Shown: one piece after another, positions 6,168 through 35,624 of the stretch | Layout: the number at the start of each line of letters is the position of its first letter | Numbering within the stretch: the stretch's first letter is position 1 | Assembly: GCA_964521955.1 (NCBI GenBank) | Contig: CAZFTX010000001.1 | Coordinates: 42,386 to 106,385, forward strand | Origin: an uncultured Candidatus Saccharibacteria bacterium | Lineage (GTDB): Bacteria; Patescibacteriota; Doudnabacteria; UBA920 | Direction of reading: 5' to 3' | DNA: 64,000 bases | Made by a program: the position numbers and the translations under genes | The notes under the pieces: generated by a model | Database searches by the model: none | Told to the model about the DNA's origin: nothing | What the model saw: the letters and a program-made list of their open reading frames with translations, nothing else

Positions 6168-6216
6168 CCAAGGGCTCGGGTAAATCCCGAACCCTTGCGC
6201 CAAAAGAATAGACGTA

Positions 6217-6730: not shown

Positions 6731-6742
6731 AGTATCGAGCGA

Positions 6743-7866: not shown

Positions 7867-8066
7867 TTGACCTCCTTAGTGGTCTGTTGTGTGCAAGTTG
7901 ATTTAGCCACGAGGACAAGTCCCCGAAGCTGGTTCTCACTTCCGATGAAATGAGCGTTCCGGCTATCAAAATCGCCAGCAAGAACGCTAATTTCAAAGGT
8001 TTAAAATTAGCGTATAATTATACCTGTTTTTTTAACTCCTGTCAAGGACTCCCTTTTCACAGAAAT

Positions 8067-15774: not shown

Positions 15775-16134
15775 ACTTTAAGTTAAAATTAATTACTTAG
15801 ATATTCTACTATACTTATTTATATGAGTCTACATTATCATACATCAGCGCTATCTGCTCCTATCAGAGAATCCGCGGACGTTTTATTGACAAAATTTAAA
15901 GCTTAATATAACATAACTGCAATATGTTCATATTCACTATTTCCCCAATTAAGAATGCAATGAAGTCTTCCTTGAAGACCATGCTTTTGGGGTTAGTCAG
16001 AAAATGAAACTTTAACCAAAATAAATTTTCTAAAACCAACCCCTCAAGCATAGCTAAAGAAGAGGGGTTTTATAATACTTACATTTCCACTTGCCGAAAG
16101 CACTTTTAACAAAAAAGTTTTTTCGGGAGGTGGC

Positions 16135-16423
16135 AATGCCAGAGCCATTCAAAGCTAAGGTTACGGCTATGGATCGGGGCCTTTACTGGATACAACCAGT
16201 AGGAATGAACGAACAAGCCAGGGTGACAGTCATAGCAATCAAGCATGGACGCAACGAAACGCTCTTGATTTTCCACCCGGCAATACCCGCCGGGCAACCG
16301 AAGGGCGAAGTACAACATTTCAGCGCTGTGATCCCGCGAAACTCGGAACAGCACACAACTTGGTGCTTACCGGGAAAACTCTCTGAAGAGGAGTACAAAA
16401 AACTTACTCCGAAAGAGGAGTAA
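16135..16423 (+). CDS. hypothetical small protein (GC-rich island 2)
   Basis: GGAGG 5 nt upstream of the ATG. Local GC about 50%. No family match recognised. Confidence 0.45.
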
Positions 16424-16537
16424 TAACAAGGAGGAAAGAACAAAGAAATCACAACACACGAAAAGCGGCCCTAGAAAGGCTTGTCACTCAATATCCGCAC
16501 CGGGAAATGAGCATGACAAGCGAGGCCGCTTTTTCAA

Positions 16538-16566
16538 TTGACACAAATCTAAATTTTTCCTATCAT
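16538..16566 (+). promoter_or_regulatory. sigma70-like promoter (TTGACA-N17-TATCAT)
   Basis: Consensus -35 with 17-nt spacing and a near-consensus -10, inside the GC-rich island upstream of 16767..17090. Confidence 0.45.
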
Positions 16567-16654
16567 TCCCACATGAGACAACTTTCATCCATTGTCATTA
16601 TTATAAGCATTACTTCCTTCCAGGCAATGGGCTGAGTTCTTTAAAGTATTGTAA

Positions 16655-16693
16655 CCGTCCCGCCCTTGCTACAAAGGGCGAGACGGTTTTTTG
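16655..16693 (+). terminator. rho-independent terminator-like hairpin
   Basis: ccgtcccgccctt / aagggcgagacgg, a 13-bp stem with one mismatch, followed by TTTTTTG. Confidence 0.5.
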
Positions 16694-16766
16694 TTCCCTG
16701 CTAAGGGCTACGTTGTAGCCTTTGGCTGGTTACAAAACCAAAAAGACAACTTGAGAGGAGAGGACA

Positions 16767-17090
16767 ATGAACACACTTAGTTTTTCGGGAGATGGCCTCA
16801 TAACGCTTCAAGAACAGCGAGCGTTACTAAGCCGCCAAACCTTCCGGATCGTAGCCGGTCAAAATGAACAAGCGTTCTCCGTGGTTTCAGTCAGCCAGCA
16901 TTCTGTTGGCATTTTCTTAGTGGAATTAGTACACCAAGACAACATTCCCTGGTATGGAATCTTGATGATTCAGGATAATCCCGGACAAACAATCATGGTC
17001 CTACAATCCGAAGCGCCACAAGACCGCAACGATTGGAACCGTCTCATTCACCAGGCCAGGCTGATTTCCCAAGGCAACCCCAACCACTAA
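16767..17090 (+). CDS. hypothetical small protein (GC-rich island 2)
   Basis: GAGAGGAGAGG SD-like purine run before the ATG. 107 aa with no recognised domain. Confidence 0.45.
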   Translation: MNTLSFSGDGLITLQEQRALLSRQTFRIVAGQNEQAFSVVSVSQHSVGIFLVELVHQDNIPWYGILMIQDNPGQTIMVLQSEAPQDRNDWNRLIHQARLISQGNPNH

Positions 17091-17100
17091 GCAAAACGAA

Positions 17101-17140
17101 AATCGGCGCCCTCCACATGGAGGCGCGCCGATTTTGATTT
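17101..17140. terminator. bidirectional rho-independent terminator
   Basis: cggcgccctcc-acat-ggaggcgcgccg GC-rich hairpin flanked by gattttgatttt. Lies between the convergent 16767..17090 (+) ORF and the giant gene (-). Confidence 0.6.
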
Positions 17141-20100
17141 TAATCATCTAAAGATATATTTTGATTCACTACGCCTTGATTGTCTACTTTTATTATCTGA
17201 TTTTTCAACAAAATAACTTTATCTTCAACTGTCTGCATTACCCTAAGTATATATTCCCCTTTTGGCGCTTTTAAGAAAAATCTTCCTTTTTCATTTGTCA
17301 TTGCCTTACCCAATACAACAGAGGGGATTGATTTAGGACTAATCTCAATTATTAAGAAGTGTGTAGGATGATTTTGGCTAGTTAAGGAGCCCCAAAGTTT
17401 ACGATGTGGAATAAACCTTTTTAGAACAAATAATAACCCAAAAACACTCACAAAAATTAAGCCAAATAAATTTGGTTTCAACAACAGAGTCAGAAGGGAA
17501 AAACTTGCACTTCCCCAAAATATTATTTCAAGAATCACATGAAAGAAAGTTTCTAAACGTGGATGGAAATTTACATATTTTAACTTACCAGTCTGGTTCC
17601 AATCAAATGCTAAAGGGTCCATGGGAATATTCGGTGACAATACTTCCCCACTTTTTGTAATTTGCATTAATTCACCATGATATAAATTATCAAAAACCCC
17701 GTCCATTTTACCCAAAATCCTAACAGAAGGAAATTGATAATTGGTTTTTTTTGCTTTTATCAAAAAATTTCCTGGCTTATCCATAAAACCAAAACGTCCG
17801 CTTAAATCGGTTATGGCTTGCTCCGTAACTTTACCTGTTTCAAAATTTATCATTTCTACAATTACTGGATCCAAAGGCTGCTTAGTAACAGAGTCATACA
17901 CTGTACCCCAATAGCGACGTCTTCGTCTTAAACCAAAACTACTCATTAAACCTTGTAATGTCGCAACAATATGGAGCCAAAATTCGGTTAAATTGGTAAA
18001 GTTACCAAGCAACCCATATTTTGCCAAACTATATTCCATTACCAAAGAAGAAGGCGCTACAACCAAAGCAGAAACTGAAACTGCTAATTTTGTTTCAAAT
18101 TCTTGTAAAAATAAAGTACTTCCTTGTTTTAGAATTTTTTCTAAAGGTTGTATTGAAGTCTTGGAAACTGTAACTATTGTATCCTTAATAAAGTTGCCGG
18201 CGCTACTCAAACCTGAAACTAAGCCTTCTGAAACCGAAGCTACACTACTGGAAATGTTTTCAAATAAATTTGCTAAAGGTAGGTTGTTTGAAAGAGGCCC
18301 AGGACTAGCATCTGGCACTGGGGGAGTGTTTTGAGGAACCACCACTACAGGAGTTTCAATAGGTGGGTTTTCAATAACAACCACGGGAGGAGAAACTTGT
18401 GGCTCAACAACATTTACCAGTGCATCTTCAGCAGGTTCAACCAACACGCTAGCAAAACTTTCTACACTATTTACACCTCTCGTAACTTTAACTCTTATAG
18501 TATAAGCACCCGCTTTTGCAAAATTACAAACATTTCTATGAGTAACAAATTCGTTAGTTGTTCTTCGGGTTAACTCGTAAATGCCGTCATTTGTACAGTC
18601 ATACTCATAAGTAATTTGCCCTTTTGCTGTCCCAGAAACCGCAACTCTTAAACTTACGTTATTTAAAGGCTCCTCCCCAACCAATTTATCTGACCAAATC
18701 TTGCGATCCTTAGAAACAGTTAGTATAGCTGCTAAGGGCAAATTTTCAACCAAAGGAGGGTTAGGAGTTGGAGTTTTATCTTTAACCAAAAGCTGAATAC
18801 CGGAACTCACAGTTTGTTTTGCTTGCATTTGACTATTAAAATATTTTACATAAACTGTATAAAAACCAGCTCGACATGTTTTTTGTTCACACAAATTCCA
18901 CTGAGTGGACGTTGTGAATAATTGCAAAACCGCATTTTTAAAATCTGGCGTGTTTGAAATTGCCATATATGCAGTATCTGCGGTCGCTTGAAGAGTTAAA
19001 GTAGTTAGACTATCTACAGTTGTGCTCGCTCCAGCGTTTATAACTACACCAAATCCTCCCTCTAAAGGAGTTGGTACACCACCACCACCTCCGCCTCCTC
19101 CACCGCCTCCAGACCCTTCATCGTCTAAAGTGGAACAAGCAGCTGTTGACTGAGTTGTTGTTGAAGTGTAAGCAGTTTCTATATCACTACTGTTTCTAGC
19201 TTTAACTACAAAATCATATGAAGTACCACAAGTCAAGCCAGAAAAAATCTGAGATGTTGAAGAGCTCCAATCAGGACTAGTTGATGCAGTTGCATTTAAA
19301 ACATAGTATTCTGTCCCTGCCGGATTACTATTTGCATTCCACGAAGCAGTCAACTGTGTTTGAGAGTCTTGATTTAGACTTAAAGAAGTTGGTAAGTTTG
19401 CCAAAGTATAAATTGAAATTGTGACAGTAGAAGCATAATTACCGGCAACATCAAACACGTCGGCATAGAAGGTATAGGGAGTATTGGGAGTTAAGCCAGA
19501 AGAAAGCCAAGACAAAGCAGAAGTCGCGGAAGAATTTGTACCTGTAGTGGAGTTATTAAAAACGTAAGAAGCTGTTGCCAAACCAGACAAAGAATCCGAA
19601 GCTCCTGAAATTGTGGCCGTCAAAGAAGTTGGTGAGGTAGTTGCTAAAGTCAAACTACCTGCAGTAGGAACGACAGTGTCTAACTTAAAAGCAACCGCAC
19701 CAGAATTAGCTGTAGCATATGAAGAATTGGCTCCCAAATTATCTATAGTTTTCACTCGCCAATAATAACCATCTGAAGAATCGCTTAAAACCTGTCCAGT
19801 TGTACCCGTTGTGTAAGTTCCCGTACTGGTTGCTTGCCCAACTGTAAAACTAGCGCTACCTTGAGTCGCTGTTGCCGAAGTATAATCCAATAACAAAGTA
19901 GAAAAAGAGGAACTTGTAGAAATTTCAATCTTATATCGCACCGTATTGCCAACATCAGGGTCAGTAAGATTGAAAGTAAAAGTAGGAGTATTATCGTTTA
20001 TCCAACTTCCACCCACAACCGTTGATGGCCCAAGCGAAGTTGGGCTATTGGGTGCGTTATCAGAAATTAAGCTTAACTCTGGTAAATTTGCATACGAATC

Positions 20101-23100
20101 CAATACTGTCCCATCACTGTAAACCATCCTAAAATAATACGTTGCACCAAGTACGACATTACTTGGATCCAATACCCAATCATACTCTATATACTGTCCG
20201 GCATTTACCGCAAAAGGGTTTAAAGCTGTTGGATTCCCTTCCTGATAGGAACCTAAAATATCGGACGAAGGAAGTAAAACTGTAGAAATAGTTGTCGAAG
20301 AAGTTACTGAAGCATTATTATAAAAGTTCCATTGTGTACTGGTTGCACTTTGTTCCGTCTCAAAAGTACTGAAAATTCCTGCACCATTTTTATATTCTGC
20401 CTGTATCCAGCTTGGAGAGCGCACACTTGAAGAAAATCTTAATTCGTCAATTACTCCTGAAAAAAAGCCCATACCAGAAGCGCTGTTTGATCCAAAATAA
20501 TATCGGTCACCACCCGTCCAAAGCGTTGCTATAGAAGCAGCGGTTCCTTCTTCAACTCCGTTTAAATATACCCTCATATTTCCGCTGTTTTGTGCGACAG
20601 CTGTAACATAATACCAATTTGAAGGAGTTAATACGGTAGTTCCAAATACCGTTTTTGTTCCACCGTCAAAGGTATAAGATTCTATTGTGCCGGTAGCATT
20701 CATTCTCAACTGGTGTGACCAAGCAGCACCTGGTCCCGCGCTAGTAGTCCTCACAAAAATATTTATAGCAGTCGCATCAACCGGTTTAATCCATGCTGAA
20801 ATTGTATATGCAGTCGGATCCGTAGCATCGTTAATAATCACCCTATCATTGGAACCATCAAAATATTGTGCGCCATCCGAAATTTCAGTAGATGTGGCAT
20901 TTGGCTCAGTTGTTGAAAGCTTGGTTCCAATAATATTATTTGAAGTTGAGTCGTCTATAGTAGTGGTTGCAGTAGTGTCGTTTAAATGATGGACAAATCT
21001 AAAACCGCTATCCCATACCCCAGTCGTTGTAGAATTATCTGTCGCTCCCGGATTGTTATAATACATCCAAATATAATCGGTACTTGAAGCGCTACTAATT
21101 TGCGGAACTTTTACCCATACTGTTGAAGTTGAAGTTTCGTCCCATTTTTCAATTTCATAATTCAATAGAGTTGACCCGTCTGAGTCAACAAAACGAATAT
21201 CTTGTCCACTGTTTTGGGTTTTACTGTAATCAATATTACTACTTTCATTTAAATTAACCAGTACAGGAAAATCTGTTAAATTTTCGGTTGCAGAAGAATT
21301 ATTAAATACAATTTTCCTTCTATTTAACCAACTGTGGTCATACCATTCATCCGGATTTATACTAACATCGTTCCAATTTGAATTCGTGTATGACGAAACC
21401 TGAAGTTTAAAATTTGAAGTTGTAGTTGATAAATTATAATCGCTAACTAATAAATTCATTCTAAGCCTAATAGGACTTGATGTAGAAATTATTACCACAG
21501 ACGAATTCAAAGCACCTATATCTACTGTTGGCTGTAATTGGTTAATATTTTCATAAAATCTATAATCTCCTTGAGAAATAACCGCTTCAAAAATCCAGCC
21601 CTCATTATTACCCGAATCTGTTGAGTAAGTGCTTTGAGCATTAATATCTGAAGCATTGATATTGTAGGAATCTTTAACATCCAAATAAGAAATGCTTTCT
21701 GTGGCCTGCGAGTCTATCCTGGCTTGGGTGCCTGAGGCAGTACTTCGGATTGATAATACTCCCCCGCTTGCGCCGGTTAAAGTTAAGGTATTGGCAATCG
21801 TCTGAGTAGAAGTTGCGCTAAAGTACAGTGTAGCGGCCGTGGTGCTAGATTTGGTTAAATTATAATAAGTGGAAGTTCCAAAAATATATTGGTCAACGCC
21901 ATTTAAGTTAACAGTACCGTTATTATGGGTAAAGGTACTGGCGTCATTAAAAAAGTTTCCGGCAATATTCAAAGTAGAGGAAGTAGCTGTATAAGTCCCG
22001 CCACCAGATAAAGTCAAATGTTTATAATTGTAGTCTTTTATACTGACACTACTAGAAGTTGAATAAATGGCAGTTGAACCGCTTTGAAATTCTGGATAGG
22101 AACTATTAGTAGTAATAGTCTCCCCTCCCTGAAGTTTAAAAGTACCTCCGTCTTGAACTATTAATGTCCCGGAAGAACCGTTAACTGTAAGATTATATCC
22201 GTTAATATTAAAAGCACCCTCTACTATATTCAAGTCCTGCGAAGCTGCATCTAAAGTCAAAGCTGAGACTAACTGGACTTCGCCCCCTGATTTGTTAACA
22301 GTAATATCCCCATTGAAAATCCCTGTCGCACCAGTAAGATCAAATGTTTGTGTCGCTGAACCACCAAATGTTAGGGCTGTAGTACCGCCGTCAAAACCAG
22401 ACAAAATCCGAACACTCCCCCTTGCTTCCACGGTACCTGTATTCAAACTTCCGTCGGATAAAATTAAATCACCAGTAGCAACTAAAGTGTCATCAGAAGT
22501 AATTGTCCTAGAATAATTTCCCACTGAATTGTTAAACTGGAGTCTTTCAAAAGTCTGACTAGAATTAATATTAATAATACGACCACCTCCATCAGCGGGT
22601 CCAAAAACTGTAGATGAAGCGGAAACAAAAGTTCCCCCAGAAATTGTAAAGTAATCAGTAAAAGTTGTGGTGCTATTGCTACCCACAAAAGAACCGCCAG
22701 ATAAAGTAAAAGAACCAGAAAGTGTAAAAGTATAATTTCCTTGAGTATAAGTCCCGGCCGCCTGCTCCCAACTACCAGAGCCACCACTTCCAATAGTAAC
22801 AGCATAATTTCCAGCATTAGAAATTGGTATAGTACCCAAAAAATCAGGGGTAGTAGTAACACCAAAAAGAGAACTTGCCGTATTAAATAATATAGTATCC
22901 GTTGCGTCCGCTGCACTATTTAATCTTACTATCAAACCCGAACCTCCACTCAAAGACAAAGTTTGATTGACACTATCATTACCAAAATCCAAAACTGTTG
23001 TACCCCCGTCAAATGTAGAAGATTGATAAATATTACCCCTAACATCGACAGTGCCTGTATTCAAACTTCCGTCGGATAAAATTAAATCACCAGTTACAAT

Positions 23101-25749
23101 TAAAGTATCCCCTGATGTAATTGTTCTAGAATAATTTCCCACTGAATTGTTAAACTGGAGTCTTTCAAAAGTCTGACTAGAATTAATATTAATAATACGA
23201 CCACCTCCATCAGCGGGTCCAAAAACTGTAGATGAAGCGGAAACAAAAGTTCCCCCAGAAATTGTAAAGTAATCAGTAAAAGTTGTGGTGCTTGACCCTC
23301 CAACAAAAGTTCCGGAAGCCATTGTAAAATTTCCAATAACAGTAAAAGTATACCCATTTCCCTGAGTAAGCGTACCTGTATAACCTGCGGACATTGTAAG
23401 GCCGGCTATTGTGGTTGTGGTTGCTATTGTCGGACTACAATTAGTTACACAAGTATTGTCAAAAGTTGCTGTATCAGATGAACCAGGCACAATGTCACTA
23501 GACCAATTAGCCGCTGTTGTCCACTGAGCATCTCCACCTCCTCCGTCCCAAACGTATGCCGCATTAAAAGCTTCTGCACTCGCATCGCCGAATTGAAAAT
23601 TGAGTTTATGATTTGCGGTCCGCAAATCTAAATGAGAAACAGTTGCCACTTCACTACAATTCCAGTTTGGATAAAAAATTATATCCCCTTCTAAGATTTG
23701 TGCTCCACTAGTCCTATCTTCTTCACCACAAGTTAAAGTTGCAAACTGCATGTCATTTACAGTAGCCTGGTCCGCTGGAGTAATAATTAAATTTTCAGTA
23801 CCAACAGTTGTAAAATCTACATTCCAATATTCTCCCGCCACCGGTTGGGAGTGAATATTTAAAACTTGTATTTCTACTGTTGGGTCAACCACTACAGGAT
23901 AAACTGCTGTTTTTAGCCAGTTTTTATCTGGAGTCAAAGTAAGTAAATTTTTATTTACAGCAAACTTTAAACTCTTACTAATCTCACCTTCACTGTCAAT
24001 CATGTAAGGAGCAGACAAAACATATAAGAGTTTTAAAGACTTTCCTTTATACCCTTTTTCATAAAGTTGAATTTTTGAATCAGACTCCTGTATATAATCA
24101 AATTCATCTAAATTCAATAAATACCTAAAACGACTCGGGTGGTTTTTATTTTTTAAAACAATTGCTTCTTTCAAGCCCGACTCAGTTATCTCATATTCCA
24201 CATCTGTGTTTAAAAATGCTTCTTTATATGCAACTTTGTTATCAAGCCTCTCAGCAGTTGTAGAAGGCCTAGTGCCTGCCATTACCATCTGTAGTTTAGG
24301 AGATTGGTTCAAAGTGTTATTCCCAGAAAAAACAATTGGATTATCCAAATTTCCTGGCAAACTTAAATCCAAAGCCTCATTGGAAAATGACATCTTCAGA
24401 AACCCTTCGGGATCAAGCAACTTCGGAGACATCTCCAAGAGCTCGGTGTCAGTCAATTCACCCTTTTCTTGTTCATATCTAGTTTCCAACCAAACAGAAT
24501 CTAGAAAGAGTAAATCTTGGTTTTCACCTTTAAATTCAAAAGGTAACTGGTAAGAAAGTCTAATTTTCAACTCCGATACAAATTCAAAGAGTGCTTTTGA
24601 TAATGGTATATTAATAAACCCATTGTTCTGCAAATTCGAAACTCCTTTAGTTAAATCTATCTCAACCAATGACTGCCAAGTCGTGCTGGTAGTTTGATAT
24701 TCAACCAAAAGAACCGCTCCCGGCGTTTTTTTAGAAGCTAACGATAAATTTAAAGCAAAGCTTGAAAGAGTTTCGAAATCAAGTAAAGATAAATCTTGTG
24801 AGGAAAAATTAAAATATTCCAGTTTTGGAGAAGAAATTTTAGAATAAGTCTGTATTGGATCAGACTGCTTTTCAGGAATTATTTCTGAATCTTTATCTAA
24901 GATTATTTCCGGATTATTTAATTCACTAATTAAATTTTCAGATTGTGGTGTTGAAGTAGTAATTATTTCTTGAGTAGTGGTAGAAAGAAGTAAGTCATCA
25001 TAAACCAAATTGGTCTCGGTTGATGTTGGAGTTTTTCCAAAACTTTCATTTTCTGAATCACTTAATTCATCAGCGTTTTCTGAAACTAATGCTTTAAATT
25101 TTTGATTGGTTGAAAATAAATCTTTATCATAAAAATTTGTCGTTGTAGAATTTCTCTGTTCCTCAATTTGGGATACAGGTTCTTCTTTTTTATTTTCAAC
25201 ATCTAAATCTGTTTGTACCAAAATAATTTCTTGTGTCCATGCTGTTATTTCTGTTGAGCTACTTTTTACTTCCCCATCTGTTATCTTTTTTTGTTCTTCT
25301 GAAGTTTTATTTAGAGTTGGATCCTTTAATTCAGTTTTTAAATTTTCAGTTTCTAAAACACTGTCCATACTTGAAGTAGACAAAGGAATTTCTAAAGGTT
25401 CAGAAATTTGATTTTCTATTCCATTTTTAAAATTAAGAACCGTAGAATTAAAATCAGTAAACTCACTTAAAGACTGTTCTGGTCCTAAGTCGTTTTTAAA
25501 TGCCTGATTTGGATTTATCCATGAAAGTGTGGAAAGTGTATCTGTTGCAGTTATTGTTACTGAGCCTTTGGGAAAATATTGTTGAATAACAATATTACTT
25601 TCTAAAATTTCCGCATCTTTCAAAGCTTCGTTTGAAATTACCGAGGCAGCAAAAATTTGAGTCGGTATTGAAAATACAAGTAAAAAAATTACAAAATTTT
25701 TACATGTTGTAATGAATGTTTTTTTAATTTTATTTAGAATTATTTTCAC
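17140..25749 (-). CDS. giant secreted/surface protein (2869 aa) with LamG/concanavalin-like domain, beta-rich repeats and a C-terminal membrane-anchor module
   Basis: N-terminal signal peptide. Two near-identical internal repeats of about 100 aa. A LamG-like segment (…WYYVTAVAQNSGNMRVYLNGVEEG…IDELRFSS). A poly-Gly linker. The C-terminal ~350 aa contain CarboxypepD_reg-like domains plus TM helices, homologous to ORF 30924..31868. Confidence 0.85.
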   Translation of the reverse strand: MKIILNKIKKTFITTCKNFVIFLLVFSIPTQIFAASVISNEALKDAEILESNIVIQQYFPKGSVTITATDTLSTLSWINPNQAFKNDLGPEQSLSEFTDFNSTVLNFKNGIENQISEPLEIPLSTSSMDSVLETENLKTELKDPTLNKTSEEQKKITDGEVKSSSTEITAWTQEIILVQTDLDVENKKEEPVSQIEEQRNSTTTNFYDKDLFSTNQKFKALVSENADELSDSENESFGKTPTSTETNLVYDDLLLSTTTQEIITTSTPQSENLISELNNPEIILDKDSEIIPEKQSDPIQTYSKISSPKLEYFNFSSQDLSLLDFETLSSFALNLSLASKKTPGAVLLVEYQTTSTTWQSLVEIDLTKGVSNLQNNGFINIPLSKALFEFVSELKIRLSYQLPFEFKGENQDLLFLDSVWLETRYEQEKGELTDTELLEMSPKLLDPEGFLKMSFSNEALDLSLPGNLDNPIVFSGNNTLNQSPKLQMVMAGTRPSTTAERLDNKVAYKEAFLNTDVEYEITESGLKEAIVLKNKNHPSRFRYLLNLDEFDYIQESDSKIQLYEKGYKGKSLKLLYVLSAPYMIDSEGEISKSLKFAVNKNLLTLTPDKNWLKTAVYPVVVDPTVEIQVLNIHSQPVAGEYWNVDFTTVGTENLIITPADQATVNDMQFATLTCGEEDRTSGAQILEGDIIFYPNWNCSEVATVSHLDLRTANHKLNFQFGDASAEAFNAAYVWDGGGGDAQWTTAANWSSDIVPGSSDTATFDNTCVTNCSPTIATTTTIAGLTMSAGYTGTLTQGNGYTFTVIGNFTMASGTFVGGSSTTTFTDYFTISGGTFVSASSTVFGPADGGGRIININSSQTFERLQFNNSVGNYSRTITSGDTLIVTGDLILSDGSLNTGTVDVRGNIYQSSTFDGGTTVLDFGNDSVNQTLSLSGGSGLIVRLNSAADATDTILFNTASSLFGVTTTPDFLGTIPISNAGNYAVTIGSGGSGSWEQAAGTYTQGNYTFTLSGSFTLSGGSFVGSNSTTTFTDYFTISGGTFVSASSTVFGPADGGGRIININSSQTFERLQFNNSVGNYSRTITSDDTLVATGDLILSDGSLNTGTVEARGSVRILSGFDGGTTALTFGGSATQTFDLTGATGIFNGDITVNKSGGEVQLVSALTLDAASQDLNIVEGAFNINGYNLTVNGSSGTLIVQDGGTFKLQGGETITTNSSYPEFQSGSTAIYSTSSSVSIKDYNYKHLTLSGGGTYTATSSTLNIAGNFFNDASTFTHNNGTVNLNGVDQYIFGTSTYYNLTKSSTTAATLYFSATSTQTIANTLTLTGASGGVLSIRSTASGTQARIDSQATESISYLDVKDSYNINASDINAQSTYSTDSGNNEGWIFEAVISQGDYRFYENINQLQPTVDIGALNSSVVIISTSSPIRLRMNLLVSDYNLSTTTSNFKLQVSSYTNSNWNDVSINPDEWYDHSWLNRRKIVFNNSSATENLTDFPVLVNLNESSNIDYSKTQNSGQDIRFVDSDGSTLLNYEIEKWDETSTSTVWVKVPQISSASSTDYIWMYYNNPGATDNSTTTGVWDSGFRFVHHLNDTTATTTIDDSTSNNIIGTKLSTTEPNATSTEISDGAQYFDGSNDRVIINDATDPTAYTISAWIKPVDATAINIFVRTTSAGPGAAWSHQLRMNATGTIESYTFDGGTKTVFGTTVLTPSNWYYVTAVAQNSGNMRVYLNGVEEGTAASIATLWTGGDRYYFGSNSASGMGFFSGVIDELRFSSSVRSPSWIQAEYKNGAGIFSTFETEQSATSTQWNFYNNASVTSSTTISTVLLPSSDILGSYQEGNPTALNPFAVNAGQYIEYDWVLDPSNVVLGATYYFRMVYSDGTVLDSYANLPELSLISDNAPNSPTSLGPSTVVGGSWINDNTPTFTFNLTDPDVGNTVRYKIEISTSSSFSTLLLDYTSATATQGSASFTVGQATSTGTYTTGTTGQVLSDSSDGYYWRVKTIDNLGANSSYATANSGAVAFKLDTVVPTAGSLTLATTSPTSLTATISGASDSLSGLATASYVFNNSTTGTNSSATSALSWLSSGLTPNTPYTFYADVFDVAGNYASTVTISIYTLANLPTSLSLNQDSQTQLTASWNANSNPAGTEYYVLNATASTSPDWSSSTSQIFSGLTCGTSYDFVVKARNSSDIETAYTSTTTQSTAACSTLDDEGSGGGGGGGGGGGVPTPLEGGFGVVINAGASTTVDSLTTLTLQATADTAYMAISNTPDFKNAVLQLFTTSTQWNLCEQKTCRAGFYTVYVKYFNSQMQAKQTVSSGIQLLVKDKTPTPNPPLVENLPLAAILTVSKDRKIWSDKLVGEEPLNNVSLRVAVSGTAKGQITYEYDCTNDGIYELTRRTTNEFVTHRNVCNFAKAGAYTIRVKVTRGVNSVESFASVLVEPAEDALVNVVEPQVSPPVVVIENPPIETPVVVVPQNTPPVPDASPGPLSNNLPLANLFENISSSVASVSEGLVSGLSSAGNFIKDTIVTVSKTSIQPLEKILKQGSTLFLQEFETKLAVSVSALVVAPSSLVMEYSLAKYGLLGNFTNLTEFWLHIVATLQGLMSSFGLRRRRRYWGTVYDSVTKQPLDPVIVEMINFETGKVTEQAITDLSGRFGFMDKPGNFLIKAKKTNYQFPSVRILGKMDGVFDNLYHGELMQITKSGEVLSPNIPMDPLAFDWNQTGKLKYVNFHPRLETFFHVILEIIFWGSASFSLLTLLLKPNLFGLIFVSVFGLLFVLKRFIPHRKLWGSLTSQNHPTHFLIIEISPKSIPSVVLGKAMTNEKGRFFLKAPKGEYILRVMQTVEDKVILLKNQIIKVDNQGVVNQNISLDD
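22425..23300. repeat. intragenic direct repeat: two ~265-bp copies (22425-22690 and 23035-23300), essentially identical, period ~610 bp
   Basis: Read directly: identical stretches including ...tcccactgaattgttaaactggagtctttcaaaagtctgactagaattaatattaataatacgaccacctccatcagcgggtccaaaaactgtagatgaagcggaaacaaaagttcccccagaaattgtaaag... occur twice. They also produce identical spurious antisense ORFs. Confidence 0.8.
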
Positions 25750-26147
25750 TCTTTATGTCTGTAAAAGTTTATCTAAATTTTAAACAATTTTCTCATTTAA
25801 TATATTAATTATGTCATAAAATAATAACTTTTACTGACTAATTTTAATTTGTTTTTTACATTATTTAAAACAATTTTTACATGAAACCAATAAATATTAT
25901 TTTTTAAAATACTTTTAATATTTTACTATGAAAAAGTATAGAAATTATTTAATTTACACCACAAGGTTTTCTTAGATATTTTTTAGAAAATCTCAAACAA
26001 TTATATACAATATATGAAACACGATTTTTCTATAATTTTTACTACATATTAATCATTTATTAGAACATTATTATTGCGAATTATCCACAACAAAAAAACG
26101 CCCTTCCTTAAATGTAAGAAAGGGACGTTTTTTATATAAAACTTAAT

Positions 26148-26831
26148 TTAGAGTTTAATTTTTACCCCAGGGCCCATAGTAGAGTTCAAAGTAATAGAGG
26201 CTATAAACTGACCTTTAAAAGCTGCTGGTTTAGAAGCCATTAAGGCTGAATAAAAAGCTTTTAAATTTTCTAATAGCTTTGAAGTTTCAAAATCGCTTTT
26301 ACCAATAATCTGATGAATGTTACCTGAGTCATCGTTTTTAAAGTTTACTTTACCACCGGCAATTTCCTTTACCAACTCTGCTATATTCTCCCCTACCGTT
26401 CCGGTTTTAGGGTTTGGCATTAGACCCCTAGTTCCTAAAATCTTGGCGATCTGTGCCAATTTTGGCATCATCGCAGGTTCTGCAACGGCTACTTCAAAGT
26501 CAGTCTTTTCAGTTTCTTTAATAGTTTTAACCAACTCTTCGCCACCTACCAAGAAGGCTCCGGCTGCCTTAGCTTCTTTTTCCTTACTTTCGGTAACGAA
26601 AGCCGCTACCTTTTTTGACTTACCTGTTCCGTTTGGAAGCTTGGCTGTACCTCTTACGGCTTGTTCGGTTTTTTTAGCTTCAATGTTAGTTCTGACATGA
26701 ACTTCTATACTACCTACAAACTTAGTATTTGCAGTTTTTTTTGCTAACTCAATACCTTCTTCTGCGCTGTAAACTTTTTCACTGTCAACTAACTCATTGT
26801 TCGCTTTAACTCGCTTTGCTAACTTTGTCAT
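26148..26831 (-). CDS. rplA: 50S ribosomal protein L1
   Basis: 227 aa; GTRGLMPNPKTGTV and the L1 fold signature. Confidence 0.9.
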   Translation of the reverse strand: MTKLAKRVKANNELVDSEKVYSAEEGIELAKKTANTKFVGSIEVHVRTNIEAKKTEQAVRGTAKLPNGTGKSKKVAAFVTESKEKEAKAAGAFLVGGEELVKTIKETEKTDFEVAVAEPAMMPKLAQIAKILGTRGLMPNPKTGTVGENIAELVKEIAGGKVNFKNDDSGNIHQIIGKSDFETSKLLENLKAFYSALMASKPAAFKGQFIASITLNSTMGPGVKIKL

Positions 26832-26963
26832 ATATTTTTTCCTTCGTGGTATTCGATCTTAAAGATCTCCCACAAATTAATAATTCTTAATTTAATTAAT
26901 TATTTGATTGAATGATTAAATTTTAACAACCTTGTTAATCTTGATCATTCATAGTCAATTGTT

Positions 26964-27332
26964 TTAAACTTCTTTTCTTGCCATTTTCCAATGAAAATAC
27001 CAAACCGGTGTTGCAACCAAAAGCATTGCTAAAGCTTGAGCGGCATCTCTTTGTTTTTGAGAAGAACGTCTTTCTTTAGCTTCTTTTTCGTAAGTAGCCT
27101 TTTCATCTGCCGTACATTCAACCGACTCTCCTGTCATTGAACCTTCTATTTTAACCGGTACACTCCTGGACATACATGGACCATAGTAATAATCCAAAGT
27201 ATCAGCTTTTGTAAACACCCAAGTCTTAAGCGCCATATTAAGAAGCATAATAGCTCCTACTACTGCAATTATTAAAGAAATAACTGAAACTAAATAGAGA
27301 TATGCTTTTTTGAGGGACATAAAAGTCTCCAA
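26964..27332 (-). CDS. hypothetical membrane protein (two TM segments)
   Basis: 122 aa with N- and C-terminal hydrophobic helices. Adjacent to the SPFH gene; not a recognisable NfeD. Confidence 0.4.
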   Translation of the reverse strand: METFMSLKKAYLYLVSVISLIIAVVGAIMLLNMALKTWVFTKADTLDYYYGPCMSRSVPVKIEGSMTGESVECTADEKATYEKEAKERRSSQKQRDAAQALAMLLVATPVWYFHWKMARKEV

Positions 27333-27448
27333 ATTATTCTAATTATACTAATTGACCTAAATAAACTCTCAAACTATTAAATTCCAATTTAATATTTGGG
27401 TTTGATATTCTTTTAAAAATAGGTTAATTAAAATTAGAAATTTAATAA

Positions 27449-28207
27449 TTATTTATTTTCTGACTCCATAAATTTTTTAATTTCTTGCACAGTACTCATA
27501 AACTGAGCAGGAAAAATTATAGTAGAATTTTTTTCTATGCTTATTTCTGCCATAGTCTGCAAATTCCTTAACTGCAAAGCTATTGGGTGCGCGGCTATAA
27601 CATCAGCGGCTTCAGAAAGCTTCTGTGCTGACATAAACTCACCCTCAGCGGCAATTATTTTAGCTCTTTTTTCTCGTTCTGCTTCTGCCTGCTTTGCCAT
27701 AGCTCTCTGCATGTTTTCTGGAAGTTCAATATCTTTAATTTCAACTACCGAAACCACCACCCCCCACACTTCAGTATGCTGGTCTAACACTTTCCGAATT
27801 TCAGCGTTAATTGTGTCTCTTTCAGAAAGAATTTCATCTAACTGAAAACGACCGACAATATTCCTTAGGGTGGTTTGCGCAATTTGGTTAATTGCGGACA
27901 TAACATTCTCAATAGAAACTATACTCTTAACAGCGTCCACTATCTGGTAATATGCGACGGCAGAAACATCTACCGAAACATTGTCCTTAGTTATAATTTT
28001 CTGTGGTGGGATTGGCAAGGTAACAGTCCTAAAATCCACTTTTGTCATCCAGGAAATGTAAGGAATAATCCAAGTTAAACCAGGATTTTTTATACCGGTT
28101 ATTTTTCCCAAAACAAACACCACACCCTTTTGGTACTGTTGTACCACTCTAAGACCGGGAATGACAATAAAAAACAGAACTATAAGCACAACCCATAAAA
28201 TAGTCAT
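27449..28207 (-). CDS. SPFH/band-7 (stomatin/prohibitin-like) protein
   Basis: N-terminal TM, SPFH core and C-terminal coiled coil rich in AEAEREKRAKI. Confidence 0.8.
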   Translation of the reverse strand: MTILWVVLIVLFFIVIPGLRVVQQYQKGVVFVLGKITGIKNPGLTWIIPYISWMTKVDFRTVTLPIPPQKIITKDNVSVDVSAVAYYQIVDAVKSIVSIENVMSAINQIAQTTLRNIVGRFQLDEILSERDTINAEIRKVLDQHTEVWGVVVSVVEIKDIELPENMQRAMAKQAEAEREKRAKIIAAEGEFMSAQKLSEAADVIAAHPIALQLRNLQTMAEISIEKNSTIIFPAQFMSTVQEIKKFMESENK

Positions 28208-28357
28208 ATGTTTTATTTAAAAATAAATATCAAGCTTTAAAAATACACAGTCTCGGACAAGAGACAAAAAACATTTTTAATTTTGATTTTTTAAATTTAA
28301 ATTTTACAGATCCGTTACTTTTTTATGCCTTGAGGAATACCTGATCCTAAAAGAATA

Positions 28358-28783
28358 CTAATTTATAACTTCTACACCCATGCTTCTAGCTGTGCCTGCA
28401 ATAATCTTTTCTGCAGCTTCCAAAGAATGACAGTTTAAATCAGGCATTTTCTTTTCTGCAATTTCTCGTACTTGTTTTGCTGTAATTTTACCCACCTTTG
28501 TAGTAAGTGGGTTAGCAGAACCCTTAGCCAATCCAATTGCTTTCATTATTAAGTTTGCAGCCGGAGGAGTTTTGAGGATAAAAGTAAAAGTCCTGTCCTC
28601 AAAAATGGTCATTTCCACCGGAATAACCATGTCACCCATAGAAGCGGTTCGGTCGTTAAACTCTTTAACAAACTGGGCAATATTAATACCCTGCGGACCC
28701 AAAGCTGTACCTACTGGAGGTGCGGGAGTTGCTTTTGCAGCCGGAAGCTGCAACTTTACCATTGTTTTTACTTTCTTTGCCAT
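28358..28783 (-). CDS. rplK: 50S ribosomal protein L11
   Basis: 141 aa; [15 protein letters not shown] is the canonical L11 motif. Confidence 0.92.
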
Positions 28784-28938
28784 AATATTTTAGATGGTAG
28801 ATCGCTGCCTTTTTTCAAAGGCTTTTTAGTGCGACCATAGATCACAAGACGAGTCCGTGACCAACCATTCCTTTCTTTAAATTAATACTCCTATATTCTT
28901 TGTGTTATTAGTGTAAAATTCGTAATTTCGTGTCATTA

Positions 28939-29484
28939 TTATATTTTCTTTACCTGCAAAAAGTCCAATTCTACGGGAGTTTCGCGGCCAAAAATTGTAA
29001 CCATTACTTTCACTTTTCCATGAGCTTCGTCTAAACCACCAACCTTACCTTCGTAGTCTTTAAAAGGCCCATCTGTAATTCTTACTAGCTCGCCCATTTC
29101 AAAATCAACTTTAAATTTGGGATCTTCCTGACCCATGCGCTTTTTTAAGTAAGCTAACTCTTCCTCTGAAATTGGAGTAGGAATAGTTCCGCTTCCTACG
29201 AAACCGGTAACATTAGGGGTGTTTCTTACAACATACCAAGAGTCGTCAGTAACAATCATGTCTACAAGCACATAACCGGGAAAGATTTTTTCTTCAAACG
29301 TAGTTCTTTTACCATCTTTAATCTTAATTTTTTTCTCCTTTGGCACAATGGAGTCAAAAATCCTGTCTTGCATATCCATAGACTCAATACGTTGCTTTAA
29401 GTTAAAAGCAACACTATCTTCATATCCACTATAGGTATGTAAAACGTACCAATGTCTTTCTCCGGTAACTTGTTGTCTGCTCAT
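28939..29484 (-). CDS. nusG: transcription termination/antitermination factor NusG
   Basis: NGN domain (WYVLHTYSGYE) and KOW motif (ELVRITDGPFKDYEGKV). Confidence 0.9.
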   Translation of the reverse strand: MSRQQVTGERHWYVLHTYSGYEDSVAFNLKQRIESMDMQDRIFDSIVPKEKKIKIKDGKRTTFEEKIFPGYVLVDMIVTDDSWYVVRNTPNVTGFVGSGTIPTPISEEELAYLKKRMGQEDPKFKVDFEMGELVRITDGPFKDYEGKVGGLDEAHGKVKVMVTIFGRETPVELDFLQVKKI

Positions 29485-29488
29485 ATAT

Positions 29489-30037
29489 TTAACTTATTAA
29501 ATTAATAGCTGTTAAAATTGCTATCAAAATTATTAAAACTTCCAAATAAAAACTTAAATGTTTACTATAAATTTTTAAAAATAATATCGAATGTTTAAAG
29601 AAGTTCTTTTCCTCTATGGCTAATTTGGAACCCTCGTTTTTAAAAGCATAAAGCTTAGTACTAAATGGCCAAAGCCACATGATTCCGTATTCTATACTAT
29701 CTAAAAAGAGATGGCTCCAAGTTCCTAAGACTAACAGAAGACTAACAAGCTTCCAATACTCATTTGGCGCTAACCAGTAAGCAAAACCCCCTAAAACTAA
29801 CCACGTAACCGGTGCGTGAGTAAAAAACCTTCTATGATGCTGGTCTGACTGCGGAGAAACTAAAAATCCTTTAGTTTTAAAAAAGAACCAAAATTCATCT
29901 AAGTCAGGAATAAAACCAAACAACATACCCCAAGCATACAATTGATATATTTCCGCTAAAGCCAGTTCCGGCTTTAAAACCTTAACACTAACTACAGCTG
30001 TTAAAAAACCAGCGGCTACGTGTCCTGTTGGCAACAT
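29489..30037 (-). CDS. membrane-bound metal-dependent hydrolase-like protein (YdjM/DUF457-like)
   Basis: Multi-TM with conserved His/Asp residues (H..AG...D.D...HRR.TH...SH..LD). Inserted between secE and nusG. Confidence 0.45.
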   Translation of the reverse strand: MLPTGHVAAGFLTAVVSVKVLKPELALAEIYQLYAWGMLFGFIPDLDEFWFFFKTKGFLVSPQSDQHHRRFFTHAPVTWLVLGGFAYWLAPNEYWKLVSLLLVLGTWSHLFLDSIEYGIMWLWPFSTKLYAFKNEGSKLAIEEKNFFKHSILFLKIYSKHLSFYLEVLIILIAILTAINLIS

Positions 30038-30038
30038 T

Positions 30039-30221
30039 TTACTTATTTAAAATTCTCTCAAAAATCTTAAGTAAAGCAAAATCACCTGCACCGAGAATTA
30101 AAGAAACTACAATACTGAAAACAATAACAGTCACGGTATATTTTAAAGTTTCCGCTCTGGTTGGCCAGACAACTTTACCTAACTCATTTTTTACTTCCTT
30201 TAAAAATCCAATTGGGTTCAT
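30039..30221 (-). CDS. secE: preprotein translocase subunit SecE
   Basis: 60 aa with a single C-terminal TM and a KEV..ELKKV..WP-like N-terminus. Classic secE-nusG synteny. Confidence 0.85.
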   Translation of the reverse strand: MNPIGFLKEVKNELGKVVWPTRAETLKYTVTVIVFSIVVSLILGAGDFALLKIFERILNK

Positions 30222-30267
30222 TTTTTGCTAGATACCTTATTACATTATAAAATTTAATCACTTATGT

Positions 30268-30395
30268 ATTGAGTCAAATCCGAGGCAAAATGCGCGGATG
30301 ATTTGAGCCGTAGTTGACCTACGGTGAGAATCAACGCAAGCATTTTAACAAAGGAGTTGACCAAAGCTATTTTTAGAATCGGACTTTGCCCGAGC
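30268..30395 (+). repeat. intergenic repeat family A, copy 1 (structured, ~130-165 nt)
   Basis: Shares gagtcaa(a/g)t(c/t)cgaggcaaaatg(c/t)gc(g/a)gatgatt(t/c)gagccgtag-N4-5-ctacggtgagaa..caacgcaagcattttaac...ccaaagctactttagaatc + terminal hairpin with the copies at 48908-49058 and 51604-51749. This copy lacks the internal ccccaaaggggtctggctccgccag segment. Confidence 0.7.
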
Positions 30396-30497
30396 AAAAA
30401 AATAGCGTTACATAAGTTGATTTTTGTCTTTTTTAAAAGGCCTTGCAGGGCCTTTTTATAGAAACATTATACAAAACCTTTCAAAGTCTGTCAAATA

Positions 30498-30893
30498 CTA
30501 CTTAGACCTTGCCAAAGCCACAGCCACTCTTTCAACAACCTGCTTTAAATCCGTGTTTGTTTTAACAAAATACTCGTCAATCTTTAAGGCTTGGGCGCTT
30601 AAAATATCTTTTTCAGACCACAAGTTACTTAAAACTATAACAATAGTTTCTGCAATCGCCTTATCCTCATGCTTACGAATAGTTTTTAATACCTCATAGC
30701 CATCCGCCTCGGGCAAAAGCAAATCCAAAAGAATCAAATTAGGTTTTTTTTCATAAACCAATTCAATTGCTTTTTTCCCGTCTTCAGCCTTTAAAACTTC
30801 ATAATTTTGATTGCTAAGTTTGTCAAAAAGTATATTTAACAGGGAGATATCATCCTCCACAATCAAAACCTTTTTTTGTGTATTTTTTTCCAT
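30498..30893 (-). CDS. stand-alone response-regulator receiver domain (CheY-like)
   Basis: 131 aa; IVEDD...LLDLLLPEADG...K, the usual Asp/Asp/Lys triad arrangement. Confidence 0.8.
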   Translation of the reverse strand: MEKNTQKKVLIVEDDISLLNILFDKLSNQNYEVLKAEDGKKAIELVYEKKPNLILLDLLLPEADGYEVLKTIRKHEDKAIAETIVIVLSNLWSEKDILSAQALKIDEYFVKTNTDLKQVVERVAVALARSK

Positions 30894-30923
30894 ACGCTCT
30901 ATTTTAAATTTAGCTTAATTATA

Positions 30924-31868
30924 TTATACCACATAAATAGTTGGGTTGCATATTGACTCAGAACCAACTTTAAAGTCAACTGTTAATTCACTCTGTGACT
31001 TTAGGCTGCTACCTGCTGGTAATTTAATATAAATTTTATAAAAACCCGGGTTTAACCTTAAAAAAAACTTTCCGTCAGAACGGGTAACAGTCTTAGCTAA
31101 GACCAAATTAGGCAAACTTGGACTCTTAAGTTCCAACAAAGCTCCTGCAATTGGTTTAAAACTGCCACCCTCTCTCAACCTACCCCAAAGTCTGGGTTGC
31201 CTAACAATTTTTTCTAGTAGATACAGACTAAAAGAAACTAAAAATATCAAAAGAATAAATAAAGTTACCCTGTTAAAAGTAAGTTTGTTTAAATAAGAAA
31301 TTAAAATCCAAACGAAAGAAAATAAAAAAACAAACCAAAAAATTACAGAGACAAATTGTAAAATAAAATTTTTGAAGTAGGGATATTTTTTTATATAAGA
31401 ATCTTTTGCAGTCTGATTCCAATCAAACTTAATTGGATCCATAGGAATATTTGGTGCAACAACTTCTGAATTGTCGACCAAATTAAAAAGTTCACCCCTA
31501 TATAGATCTTCATAAAAACCGTCACTCGGAGAACTTGAAAGTTGAGAAGGAAACCTATAGTGAGTTTTCTGCGCTAAAATTTTGTAAGTGCCAGGCTCTA
31601 CCAAAAATCCATATCTCCCGGAAATATCAGTAATACAATTTTGCACCTCTTTCAAACCATCAGCCGAAACTAGCTTTACCATAACCGGATCAAGTGGTTT
31701 TTTTTCAACACTATCATAGACAATCCCCCAAAACTTTCTTGGTTTGCGCAATCCTAAAAAAACAAAAATTAAATTAAGAAATTTCTGAAAAAATAAAATC
31801 ACCTGAATGAATACAGGCAAATATGCTTTTTTTACAACTTTACTTTCAATACTATTCATTACCCACAA
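30924..31868 (-). CDS. membrane protein with CarboxypepD_reg-like domains; paralog of the giant protein's C-terminal anchor
   Basis: RKFWGIVYDSVEKKPLDPVMV...TDISGRYGF...NIPMDPIKFDWNQT plus TM helices and a second domain (GKFFLRLNPGFYKIYI). Collinear with the giant protein's C-terminus (RRYWGTVYDSVTKQPLDPVIV...NIPMDPLAFDWNQT...KGRFFLKAPKGEYILRV). Confidence 0.7.
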   Translation of the reverse strand: MWVMNSIESKVVKKAYLPVFIQVILFFQKFLNLIFVFLGLRKPRKFWGIVYDSVEKKPLDPVMVKLVSADGLKEVQNCITDISGRYGFLVEPGTYKILAQKTHYRFPSQLSSSPSDGFYEDLYRGELFNLVDNSEVVAPNIPMDPIKFDWNQTAKDSYIKKYPYFKNFILQFVSVIFWFVFLFSFVWILISYLNKLTFNRVTLFILLIFLVSFSLYLLEKIVRQPRLWGRLREGGSFKPIAGALLELKSPSLPNLVLAKTVTRSDGKFFLRLNPGFYKIYIKLPAGSSLKSQSELTVDFKVGSESICNPTIYVV

Positions 31869-32693: not shown

Positions 32694-32766
32694 ACAACAA
32701 TTATACCCCATTCAAAAAAGACTGAATAGTACTTTAATTCTCAACGCGCGATAAAATTTAGGCATG

Positions 32767-32859
32767 GGTTCAAATCCTAGGCAAAATGTGCGCCTGCCTG
32801 CCGGCAAGGCAGGGCTGATTCGATAAATAAATAGCATCCTGAGGATCGGGCTTTGCCCG
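32767..32859 (+). repeat. intergenic repeat family A, diverged copy
   Basis: Keeps the 5' (ttcaaatcctaggcaaaatgtgcgc) and 3' (atcgggctttgcccgg) ends of family A with a different internal core (cctgcctgccggcaaggcaggg hairpin). Confidence 0.45.
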
Positions 32860-32918
32860 GCCGAAGGATACAATATGCAGGGGGAGGTATTGGAAGGGGG
32901 CGGTACGCCCCCTCCAAA

Positions 32919-34865: not shown

Positions 34866-34869
34866 GAGT

Positions 34870-34990: not shown

Positions 34991-35017
34991 TTAGAATTTA
35001 TTAATTACCAATAAATA

Positions 35018-35554: not shown

Positions 35555-35624
35555 ATTATGTTTATAATCCTAATTATCCGAATATTATATTTGGGGCATT
35601 AGGATAGAATTCGGATCATTCGGA

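Follow-up and report, generated by a model that had tools for sequence, protein, structure and literature searches.

The largest gene in the window analysed here (64,000 nt, or 64 kb, of contig CAZFTX010000001.1, from a Doudnabacteria-like member of the Patescibacteria, the Candidate Phyla Radiation or CPR) encodes a giant protein of 2,869 amino acids (aa; 17140..25749, - strand). As a CPR surface protein the giant is of an ordinary, expected kind; its uncharacterised part is the C-terminal module, which represents a large, widespread and Patescibacteria-specific protein family. A second member of this family, the product of the stand-alone open reading frame (ORF) at 30924..31868 (-; hereafter ORF314), is the same module in the form of a core-genome protein lacking an ectodomain, and the two window copies are old paralogues rather than the outcome of a recent duplication.

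In the explanation that we favour, to which we give a somewhat better than even chance as a whole, the giant would be a Sec-exported type-I membrane protein that exposes ~2,500 residues on the cell surface in the form of a long, mosaic fibre. Beginning at its far end and moving inwards, this fibre would consist of an acidic tip that is disordered, a conserved β-rich head, a stalk resembling a β-helix, a DUF2341 + LamG pair, several Ig/fn3/PKD-like domains and a Gly11 hinge, and it would most likely bind a glycan or protein surface, be it of a host cell or of a substrate. The ~315-aa module would hold the protein in the membrane. It is predicted to comprise a spanning helix (a), a juxtamembrane amphipathic helix (b), a poly-Arg/Lys patch, a conserved transthyretin/CarboxypepD_reg-like sandwich, a two-helix membrane hairpin and a second sandwich, with both sandwiches in the cytoplasm, and it is probably more than an anchor.

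The C-terminal module in its long and short forms

The C-terminus of the giant is homologous to ORF314, with 39% identity over 239 aa (BLASTP, E 7e-60). An earlier annotation made without database searches (the sequence-only reading) had described the C-terminal ~350 aa as collinear with ORF314, quoting pairs of shared motifs and proposing a pairwise alignment as the check. Both motif pairs are indeed found in the giant and in ORF314, and the alignment is significant; the collinear stretch, though, is shorter than had been proposed, at ~240–265 aa. ORF314 is listed as 314 aa long, with a likely ATG start that would shorten it to 311 aa. It matches the Pfam family CarboxypepD_reg (PF13620) at 38.1 bits, above the cutoff of 32.3, as well as SdrD_B at 32.4 bits, whereas the module of the giant scores 29.6 bits against CarboxypepD_reg, which is under the cutoff. 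Neither Pfam nor NCBIfam holds a module-specific model, the only match being the generic CarboxypepD_reg, at or under cutoff for the giant and above it for ORF314. Correspondingly, the source annotations of module proteins read ‘hypothetical’ or ‘carboxypeptidase-like regulatory domain-containing’, and we found no published description of the family in an incomplete literature collection.

With aa 2530–2869 as the query, phmmer was run exhaustively against 1.84 billion representatives and returned 3,350 cluster representatives at E<=1e-3, with 745 of these at E<=1e-30 and E-values down to 1e-103. Among the best 150 of the 3,350 the match is always C-terminal, in proteins ranging from 265 to 3,490 aa; among 134 newly found module proteins, 63 have at least 1,000 aa and 25 at least 2,000 aa. 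Species genomes of GTDB, taken one each, contain at least 560 module loci. Nearly all of the loci listed are labelled with named Patescibacteria lineages or merely as ‘bacterium’ or ‘uncultured bacterium’, and the exceptions, a 1.6-kb contig labelled Gammaproteobacteria and a fragment labelled ‘archaeon’, seem to have been mis-binned. When ORFs were rebuilt at 84 loci, they fell into ~43 long forms (450–2,993 aa) and ~42 short forms (275–336 aa), with the module reaching the stop codon every time, so that long forms make up ~50% of 86 module ORFs; several genomes carry one short copy together with at least two long ones. The two window copies can be aligned over their full length with 77 homologues, the alignment has 15 invariant columns, and both copies fit the family signature, that is, helix b, the basic patch, the WGxVYDSxxKQPLDP sandwich, NIPMDPxxFDWNQ, the transmembrane (TM) hairpin and the second sandwich at the extreme C-terminus.

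The sequence-only reading regarded ORF314 as a stand-alone duplicate of the giant's anchor module, a view that the phylogeny does not bear out. A neighbour-joining tree of 80+ modules places ORF314 within a clade made up solely of syntenic short stand-alone genes, ~40 of them from other genomes, while the module of the giant lies among the long forms, nearest to that of locus L007, and is closer to the long forms of other genomes (43–50% identity) than to ORF314 (39%). Since the two copies belong to separate clades and are less similar to each other than the giant's module is to other long forms, they are best understood as ancient paralogues. Across the collections searched, the closest match to the giant's module is 50% identical, and the best whole-protein relative 34–40%.

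The stand-alone ORF314 is, by these comparisons, a conserved member of the core genome. A gene block of the order mreC-(mreD)-PBP2-folD-[ORF314]-response regulator-(secE)-ydjM-nusG-rplK-(SPFH)-rplA recurs at no fewer than 36 loci, labelled Doudnabacteria, Patescibacteria or (under Third Party Annotation, TPA) Saccharibacteria. The orthologues of ORF314 are 38–45% identical to it, against 84–91% for nusG, 76–88% for SPFH and 70–83% for rplA, which indicates that the short form is a conserved yet fast-evolving core gene.

Predicted membrane topology and linkage to CheY-like regulators

The conserved module occupies aa 2555–2869 of the giant (17143..18087, -), as delimited by homology, alignment and an AlphaFold2 (AF2) model built from a 79-sequence alignment (pLDDT 87.9, pTM 0.74). 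Helix a (aa 2555–2581) is followed by the amphipathic helix b (2586–2607), the basic patch RRRRR (2608–2612), β-sandwich 1 (~2613–2722), the helices TM2 (2728–2757) and TM3 (2761–2781), and β-sandwich 2 (2787–2869). In the numbering of the model, where residue 1 corresponds to aa 2530 of the giant, a low-confidence helix at 7–48 includes helix a, helix b lies at 58–75, the first sandwich at 86–183, the two helices of the membrane hairpin at 201–228 and 232–250, and the second sandwich at 258–337. The first sandwich is predicted to adopt the seven-stranded, transthyretin-like CarboxypepD_reg fold. It contains or is flanked by 14 of the 15 invariant columns, including those of the WGxVYDSxxKQPLDP and NIPMDPxxFDWNQ motifs, and the second sandwich is far less conserved. 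Comparison of the whole model with known folds gave TM-scores of at most 0.23, with no known helix/sandwich/TM hairpin/sandwich arrangement among them.

We assessed the topology on 126 long forms, using 19-aa Kyte–Doolittle (KD) hydropathy maxima and counts of Lys and Arg (K+R) in the flanks. The KD maximum is 1.68 for helix a, 1.40 for helix b, 2.08 for TM2 and 1.95 for TM3. The mean K+R count is 2.0 before helix a, 0.33 in the a–b loop, 4.3 after helix b, 3.2 before TM2, 0.32 in the TM2–TM3 loop and 2.6 after TM3. If helix a spans the membrane, helix b lies on the cytoplasmic face and TM2/TM3 form a hairpin, ~10 basic residues are placed inside and ~2 outside, whereas a four-span model with the sandwiches outside places ~10 outside and <1 inside. 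By the positive-inside rule, both β-sandwiches are thus probably cytoplasmic. A hydrophobic, signal-peptide-like N-terminus is present in 91 of the 113 long forms that start with Met. The short forms have neither helix a nor a signal peptide, and with a mean KD of 1.24 their helix b is only weakly hydrophobic; the hairpin would thus attach them to the membrane as cytoplasmic proteins.

ORF314 is followed directly downstream by a gene for a single-domain CheY-like response regulator (30498..30893, -), and this pairing recurs. At the GTDB loci, a regulator of this type (Pfam Response_reg, 126–147 aa) lies directly downstream of 29 of 40 short forms and 7 of 43 long forms, against a background of ~16 among ~1,170 other ORFs at the same loci (binomial tail 2e-6). 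In a separate, independent metagenome sample, some contigs of which overlap the GTDB set, it is found at 12 of 18 short forms and at 10–12 of 45 long forms (10 of 43 by another count), with a background of 4 in 523; none of these counts are phylogenetically independent. Taken together, a regulator follows ~16–25% of long forms, compared with ~1% in the background. The regulators form separate clades, one next to long forms, one next to short forms and a third at a position after rplA. The pairs that involve long forms occur in at least two contexts—a DEAD helicase, the long form and the regulator on the same strand, or TlyA and the long form with a convergent regulator—and the module–regulator pairing as a whole in at least three. 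Neighbours of such pairs encode a DEAD helicase, BipA, a PG_binding protein, TlyA/FtsJ, a PilB-like ATPase and a P-type ATPase; no histidine kinase was present next to them among the neighbours examined. The pairing suggests that a cytoplasmic receiver protein may be an interaction partner of the module, which would fit the cytoplasmic topology.

Several observations weigh against placing the sandwiches in the cytoplasm. Transthyretin/CnaB-like domains are usually extracytoplasmic. Helices a and b are both moderately hydrophobic, so that four spans are possible, and helix b of ORF314 itself is strongly hydrophobic (KD 2.1), which means that the N-terminal tail of ORF314 may cross the membrane. 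Amino acid composition was rejected as an indicator of topology, since the sandwiches, with 21–26% charged residues, resemble the window's cytoplasmic proteins and its periplasmic PBP2/MreC domains alike. As for the regulator linkage, the giant of the window has no adjacent response regulator. One could propose instead that the module is an extracytoplasmic anchor: the membrane hairpin would be that of helices a and b, and the two sandwiches would lie outside, binding peptidoglycan, surface (S-) layer or Ca2+ and thereby fastening the fibre to the wall. This would agree with the resemblance of the sandwiches to folds that are typical of surface proteins associated with the wall (CnaB, SdrD-B, pilins and the carboxypeptidase D domain), with the SdrD_B match of ORF314, with a helix a hydrophobic enough to span the membrane and with the location of the short form in a cell-wall gene neighbourhood, mreBCD-PBP2. 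Such an arrangement would, however, break the positive-inside rule across the 126 sequences; it is difficult to reconcile with short forms that have no signal peptide and often a weak helix b, and it leaves the recurrent pairing with cytoplasmic CheY-like proteins unexplained. We consider an outside anchor unlikely.

The ‘shared envelope-anchoring module’ of the sequence-only reading holds in part: the module is shared, conserved, predicted to be membrane-embedded and C-terminal on many large secreted Patescibacteria proteins. Anchoring alone is probably an incomplete description, since a passive anchor needs neither sandwiches on the cytoplasmic side, where the charge distribution puts them, nor linkage to CheY-like genes. 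A bolder proposal is that the module acts as a transmembrane coupling device whose cytoplasmic sandwiches dock a cognate CheY-like regulator, so that the phosphorylation state within the cell would control the display, clustering or release of the fibre, or contact outside would be reported inwards; the short form would then be a conserved core subunit joined by variable long forms. Drawn from genetic linkage, this proposal is highly speculative and in our view quite improbable. If correct, it would work like the LapA/LapD-LapG system, in which a second-messenger or signalling protein governs the retention of a giant adhesin from the cytoplasm, although the two share no homology: LapA is exported by a type I secretion system (T1SS) in diderms and its regulator is a separate receptor for cyclic di-GMP (c-di-GMP), whereas here the putative receiver-binding part is fused to the adhesin. 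The module likewise differs from other CarboxypepD_reg/transthyretin-like domains—those of carboxypeptidase D, SdrD B-repeats, CnaB and NOMO of the BOS complex—in that its sandwiches are predicted to be cytoplasmic and that NIPMDPxxFDWNQ and WGxVYDSxxKQPLDP are specific to the module family.

Apart from type IV pili, little is known of the means by which ultra-small CPR bacteria stay attached to their hosts and regulate this attachment. The module marks thousands of large secreted Patescibacteria proteins and so provides a sequence handle for catalogues of the surface proteome; it has a conserved stand-alone paralogue within a core block of envelope and translation genes; and the predicted cytoplasmic domains, taken with the CheY-like pairing, suggest a testable route for the control of surface fibres. 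If the module merely anchors, it would make a useful annotation and be biologically ordinary.

The giant gene and its mosaic ectodomain

The giant gene consists of 2,869 codons and a stop codon in an unbroken frame that starts with GTG. At 8,610 nt it takes up 13.5% of the window, in agreement with the sequence-only reading (8.6 kb, ~13%), and the next longest ORF encodes 854 aa. One might suspect that an ORF of this size is an artefact, whether of chimeric assembly, of read-through between two genes or of pseudogene decay, but nothing except the size and the GTG start speaks for this. There is no stop codon in 8.6 kb; a 2,958-aa protein from another contig (P0092) matches both ends, with 34% identity to aa 260–1566 and 40% to aa 2495–2867; and at least 14 other loci combine head, stalk and module in a single ORF. 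Since at least 15 related giants elsewhere thus keep the same end-to-end layout, a frameshift or chimera artefact is excluded, and an artefact of any kind is hardly credible. Upstream, a strong terminator-like hairpin (26101–26124, 10 pairs) with a T-run and ~350 nt of AT-rich DNA separate the giant from rplA. The giant gene therefore presumably has a promoter of its own; the ~400-nt AT-rich region that holds the intrinsic terminator of rplA (25750..26147, -) may include this promoter.

As had been proposed in the earlier annotation, the protein begins with a signal-peptide-like segment (aa 1–35; 25645..25749, -). Read directly from the sequence, the N-terminus MKIILNKIKKTFITTCKNFVIFLLVFSIPTQIFA/AS combines a basic n-region with a hydrophobic core (window aa 18–39, KD 2.25) and an A-x-A-like end, and as MKIILNKIKKTF...FVIFLLVFSIPTQIFA/AS it resembles a Sec signal peptide. 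It is followed by an acidic, S/T-rich low-complexity region (aa 36–310; 24820..25644, -) with ~20% D+E and 22–27% S+T, and then by the conserved β-rich ‘head’ (aa 311–735; 23545..24819, -), which was delimited by alignment with relatives and carries the motifs HPxxFxY and YPVxxDPTVE. The head belongs to a rare family: a search of 5.8 billion proteins gave seven matches, which include small proteins of 433–636 aa. Its AF2 model, from a seven-sequence alignment, is all-β (pLDDT 67), and a Foldseek structure search with it returned generic β-sandwiches of the kind found in microbial surface components recognizing adhesive matrix molecules (MSCRAMMs), at TM-scores of at most 0.19 and with no informative match.

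The G/S/T-rich repetitive ‘stalk’ (aa 736–1400; 21550..23544, -) may be β-helix-like. It contains a recent internal duplication, the copies of which (aa 792–940, 22930..23376, -; and aa 999–1145, 22315..22755, -) are 87% identical in the core at the protein level and 89% identical over 300 nt of DNA. Pfam gave no match for aa 1–1400, nor did a PDB sequence search of the stalk. The ‘S/T-rich β repeats’ of the sequence-only reading are accurate as to composition, with S+T making up 25% of the ectodomain; as to repeats, this duplication is the single one detectable by sequence, and the remaining ‘modular repeats’ are divergent Ig/fn3-like domains.

Further towards the membrane, DUF2341 (PF10102; aa 1515–1590; 20980..21207, -) matches with E 4.9e-16 and 59.4 bits against a cutoff of 23.4, and is accompanied by the LamG/concanavalin-like domain that the earlier annotation had recognised (Laminin_G_3, PF13385, a ConA-like lectin/glucanase family; aa 1631–1783; 20401..20859, -). 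The latter match covers profile positions 1–151 of 151 with 68.9–72.4 bits against a cutoff of 27.6 (E 7e-19 to 6e-20). The β-sandwich and fn3/Ig-like domains at aa 1800–2205 (19135..20352, -) match Pfam and PDB weakly: fn3 scores 24.7 bits, just under the cutoff of 25, Ig_Rha78A_N is also under cutoff, and the only match in a PDB sequence search of the whole protein is a marginal one to the fn3 domain of chitinase A1 (E 0.002). A flexible linker at aa 2212–2224 (19078..19116, -) has the 13 residues of the ‘Gly13 linker’ proposed earlier, with the composition G-S-G11. The remaining segment up to the module (aa 2225–2554; 18088..19077, -) is Ig-like, then weakly PKD-like (E 0.07) and finally a Pro-rich/helical juxtamembrane linker, and matches the start of another protein, P0004. 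NCBIfam yielded nothing above noise for any segment of the giant.

Four established classes of surface protein were considered and rejected. Sortase/LPXTG anchoring was dismissed on the grounds that the giant contains no LPxTG or NPxTG motif anywhere and has no match to an NCBIfam LPXTG-anchor model. A cargo of type IX secretion (T9SS) would require a C-terminal domain for which neither NCBIfam nor Pfam gave a match, and the last domain of the giant is preceded by TM helices. For a giant RTX/T1SS adhesin of the LapA, SiiE or MpIBP type there is no RTX/HemolysinCabind match, and a signal-peptide-like N-terminus is present. The C-terminus of helical TM segments and β-sandwich, with no autotransporter match in Pfam, is not that of a type V autotransporter.

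The giant and its relatives are mosaics. P0092 does not match its middle part, and at the 14 or more further loci the relatives share the head (aa ~280–770), the stalk and the module and gain or lose DUF2341-LamG and fn3 cassettes, locus L013 having no DUF2341-LamG cassette. P0092 itself is one of at least four giants encoded in tandem on one strand (L001 1..23134; >1,415, 2,958, 2,624 and 1,856+ aa), two of which end in the module, which suggests a paralogous expansion of surface fibres. Cassette swapping and recent internal duplication are what one would expect of surface-recognition proteins that diversify rapidly; they support an adhesin role without proving it. By analogy with other CPR bacteria, a role in host attachment is plausible.

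Evidence against this account is that the adhesin role is drawn by analogy, that the head has no informative structural match and that the β-helix assignment lacks a significant match, the MinC β-helix matches being sub-threshold only. The ectodomain could instead belong to a cell-anchored protein that binds or degrades polysaccharides for nutrients, or form a structural fibre of the envelope or of an S-layer-like coat. We regard this as fairly unlikely, although a LamG/ConA-like ‘lectin/glucanase’ domain and DUF2341 are both present, the G/S/T-rich region may be β-helix-like as in polysaccharide lyases, and relatives occur in tandem arrays of giants, as would be the case for components of the surface that are either structural and abundant or variable. 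Searches of Pfam, NCBIfam and PDB revealed no catalytic family, and diversifying recognition accounts better than a housekeeping structure does for the shuffled cassettes, the recent internal duplication and the variable position in the genome.

Giant membrane proteins of Vampirococcus lugosii have been inferred to be host-attachment factors (PMC8080830), and in the cultivated Saccharibacterium Southlakia epibionticum adhesins with lectin domains are essential for epibiotic growth (PMC10633639). The giant resembles these CPR proteins by description—more than 1,400 aa, ultra-small cells, predicted membrane attachment and adhesion- or lectin-type domains—but those papers do not describe the C-terminal module and their systems are from Saccharibacteria or Absconditabacteria, while the lineage here is Doudnabacteria-like. 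Like known DUF2341 + Laminin_G_3 proteins, the giant has both domains above Pfam cutoffs and in the usual order; unlike in those, the pair accounts for only ~10% of the giant and is an exchangeable cassette. The likeness to the sortase-anchored LPXTG MSCRAMM adhesins of monoderms lies in the signal peptide, in a long β-rich ectodomain of modular build and, at the C-terminus, in a hydrophobic segment followed by a basic patch, whereas the LPXTG motif is missing and the basic patch of the giant is followed by ~260 more conserved residues.

In other genomes, large ectodomains and the module are also found in adjacent genes. On the metagenome contig L096 (2..12203), 2 nt separate the end of a giant gene (>3,635 aa, long-type module) from a short form (292 aa), which is followed by a CheY-like regulator and ydjM-nusG-rplK...rplA, the giant taking the position usually held by folD. 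On three contigs, mid-size module proteins (398–515 aa) are encoded just downstream of secreted surface proteins of 1,400–1,700 aa (L085 788..6548, L086 1..6248 and L087 64..6197, with gaps of 2–10 nt, those in L085 and L086 being 2–8 nt, and with a 189-aa ORF in between in L087), and one of these large proteins has sortase, He_PIG and CLIPPER domains. These three cases suggest that gene fusion or fission has joined the module to, or split it from, large ectodomain proteins.

Genomic setting

The window is an ordinary stretch of chromosome, with pyrG, rplI, ftsEX, prfB, tmk, thyA, folA, dcd, mreBCD, PBP2, folD, nusG, rplK, rplA, secA, clpB and gatAB among others, and the CPR-typical DUF5671. 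The block around ORF314 reads mreC-mreD-PBP2-folD-ORF314-response regulator-(secE)-ydjM-nusG-rplK-SPFH-DUF5671-rplA (26148..36425, -); the SPFH and DUF5671 genes are located between rplK and rplA, and rplJ/rplL/rpoB do not follow rplA. In relatives, dcd comes 0.1–2 kb after rplA, usually with a small response regulator (125–149 aa) in between. In the window, the rplA–dcd interval (15775..26147) measures ~10 kb and contains no regulator, only the giant and two small ORFs without a Pfam match (16091..16423 and 16767..17090, both +); a remnant of the post-rplA regulator was looked for near the giant and not found. Since the giant fills a gap that is so short in relatives, it is flexible-genome content placed within a conserved backbone, and the interval marks a hotspot of insertion or replacement.

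Two further proteins encoded among the housekeeping genes may be additional surface or redox proteins, namely a 356-aa Sortilin-Vps10/BNR-like repeat protein (40995..42065, -) and a 178-aa cupredoxin-like protein (42979..43515, -). The window also contains a complete diversity-generating retroelement (DGR; 4806..7996, -). A link between this element and the giant was rejected because its template repeat (~6217–6344) has no copy inside the giant gene. The reverse transcriptase ORF lies at 4806..5852 (-; RVT_1, E 2e-20), and the variable repeat (~6745–6872) corresponds to the last ~42 codons of a target ORF (6743..7996; 417 aa, without a Pfam match). The G+C content of the DGR region is 0.52 as against ~0.37 elsewhere, and 19 of the 20 mismatches between template and variable repeat are at template adenines.

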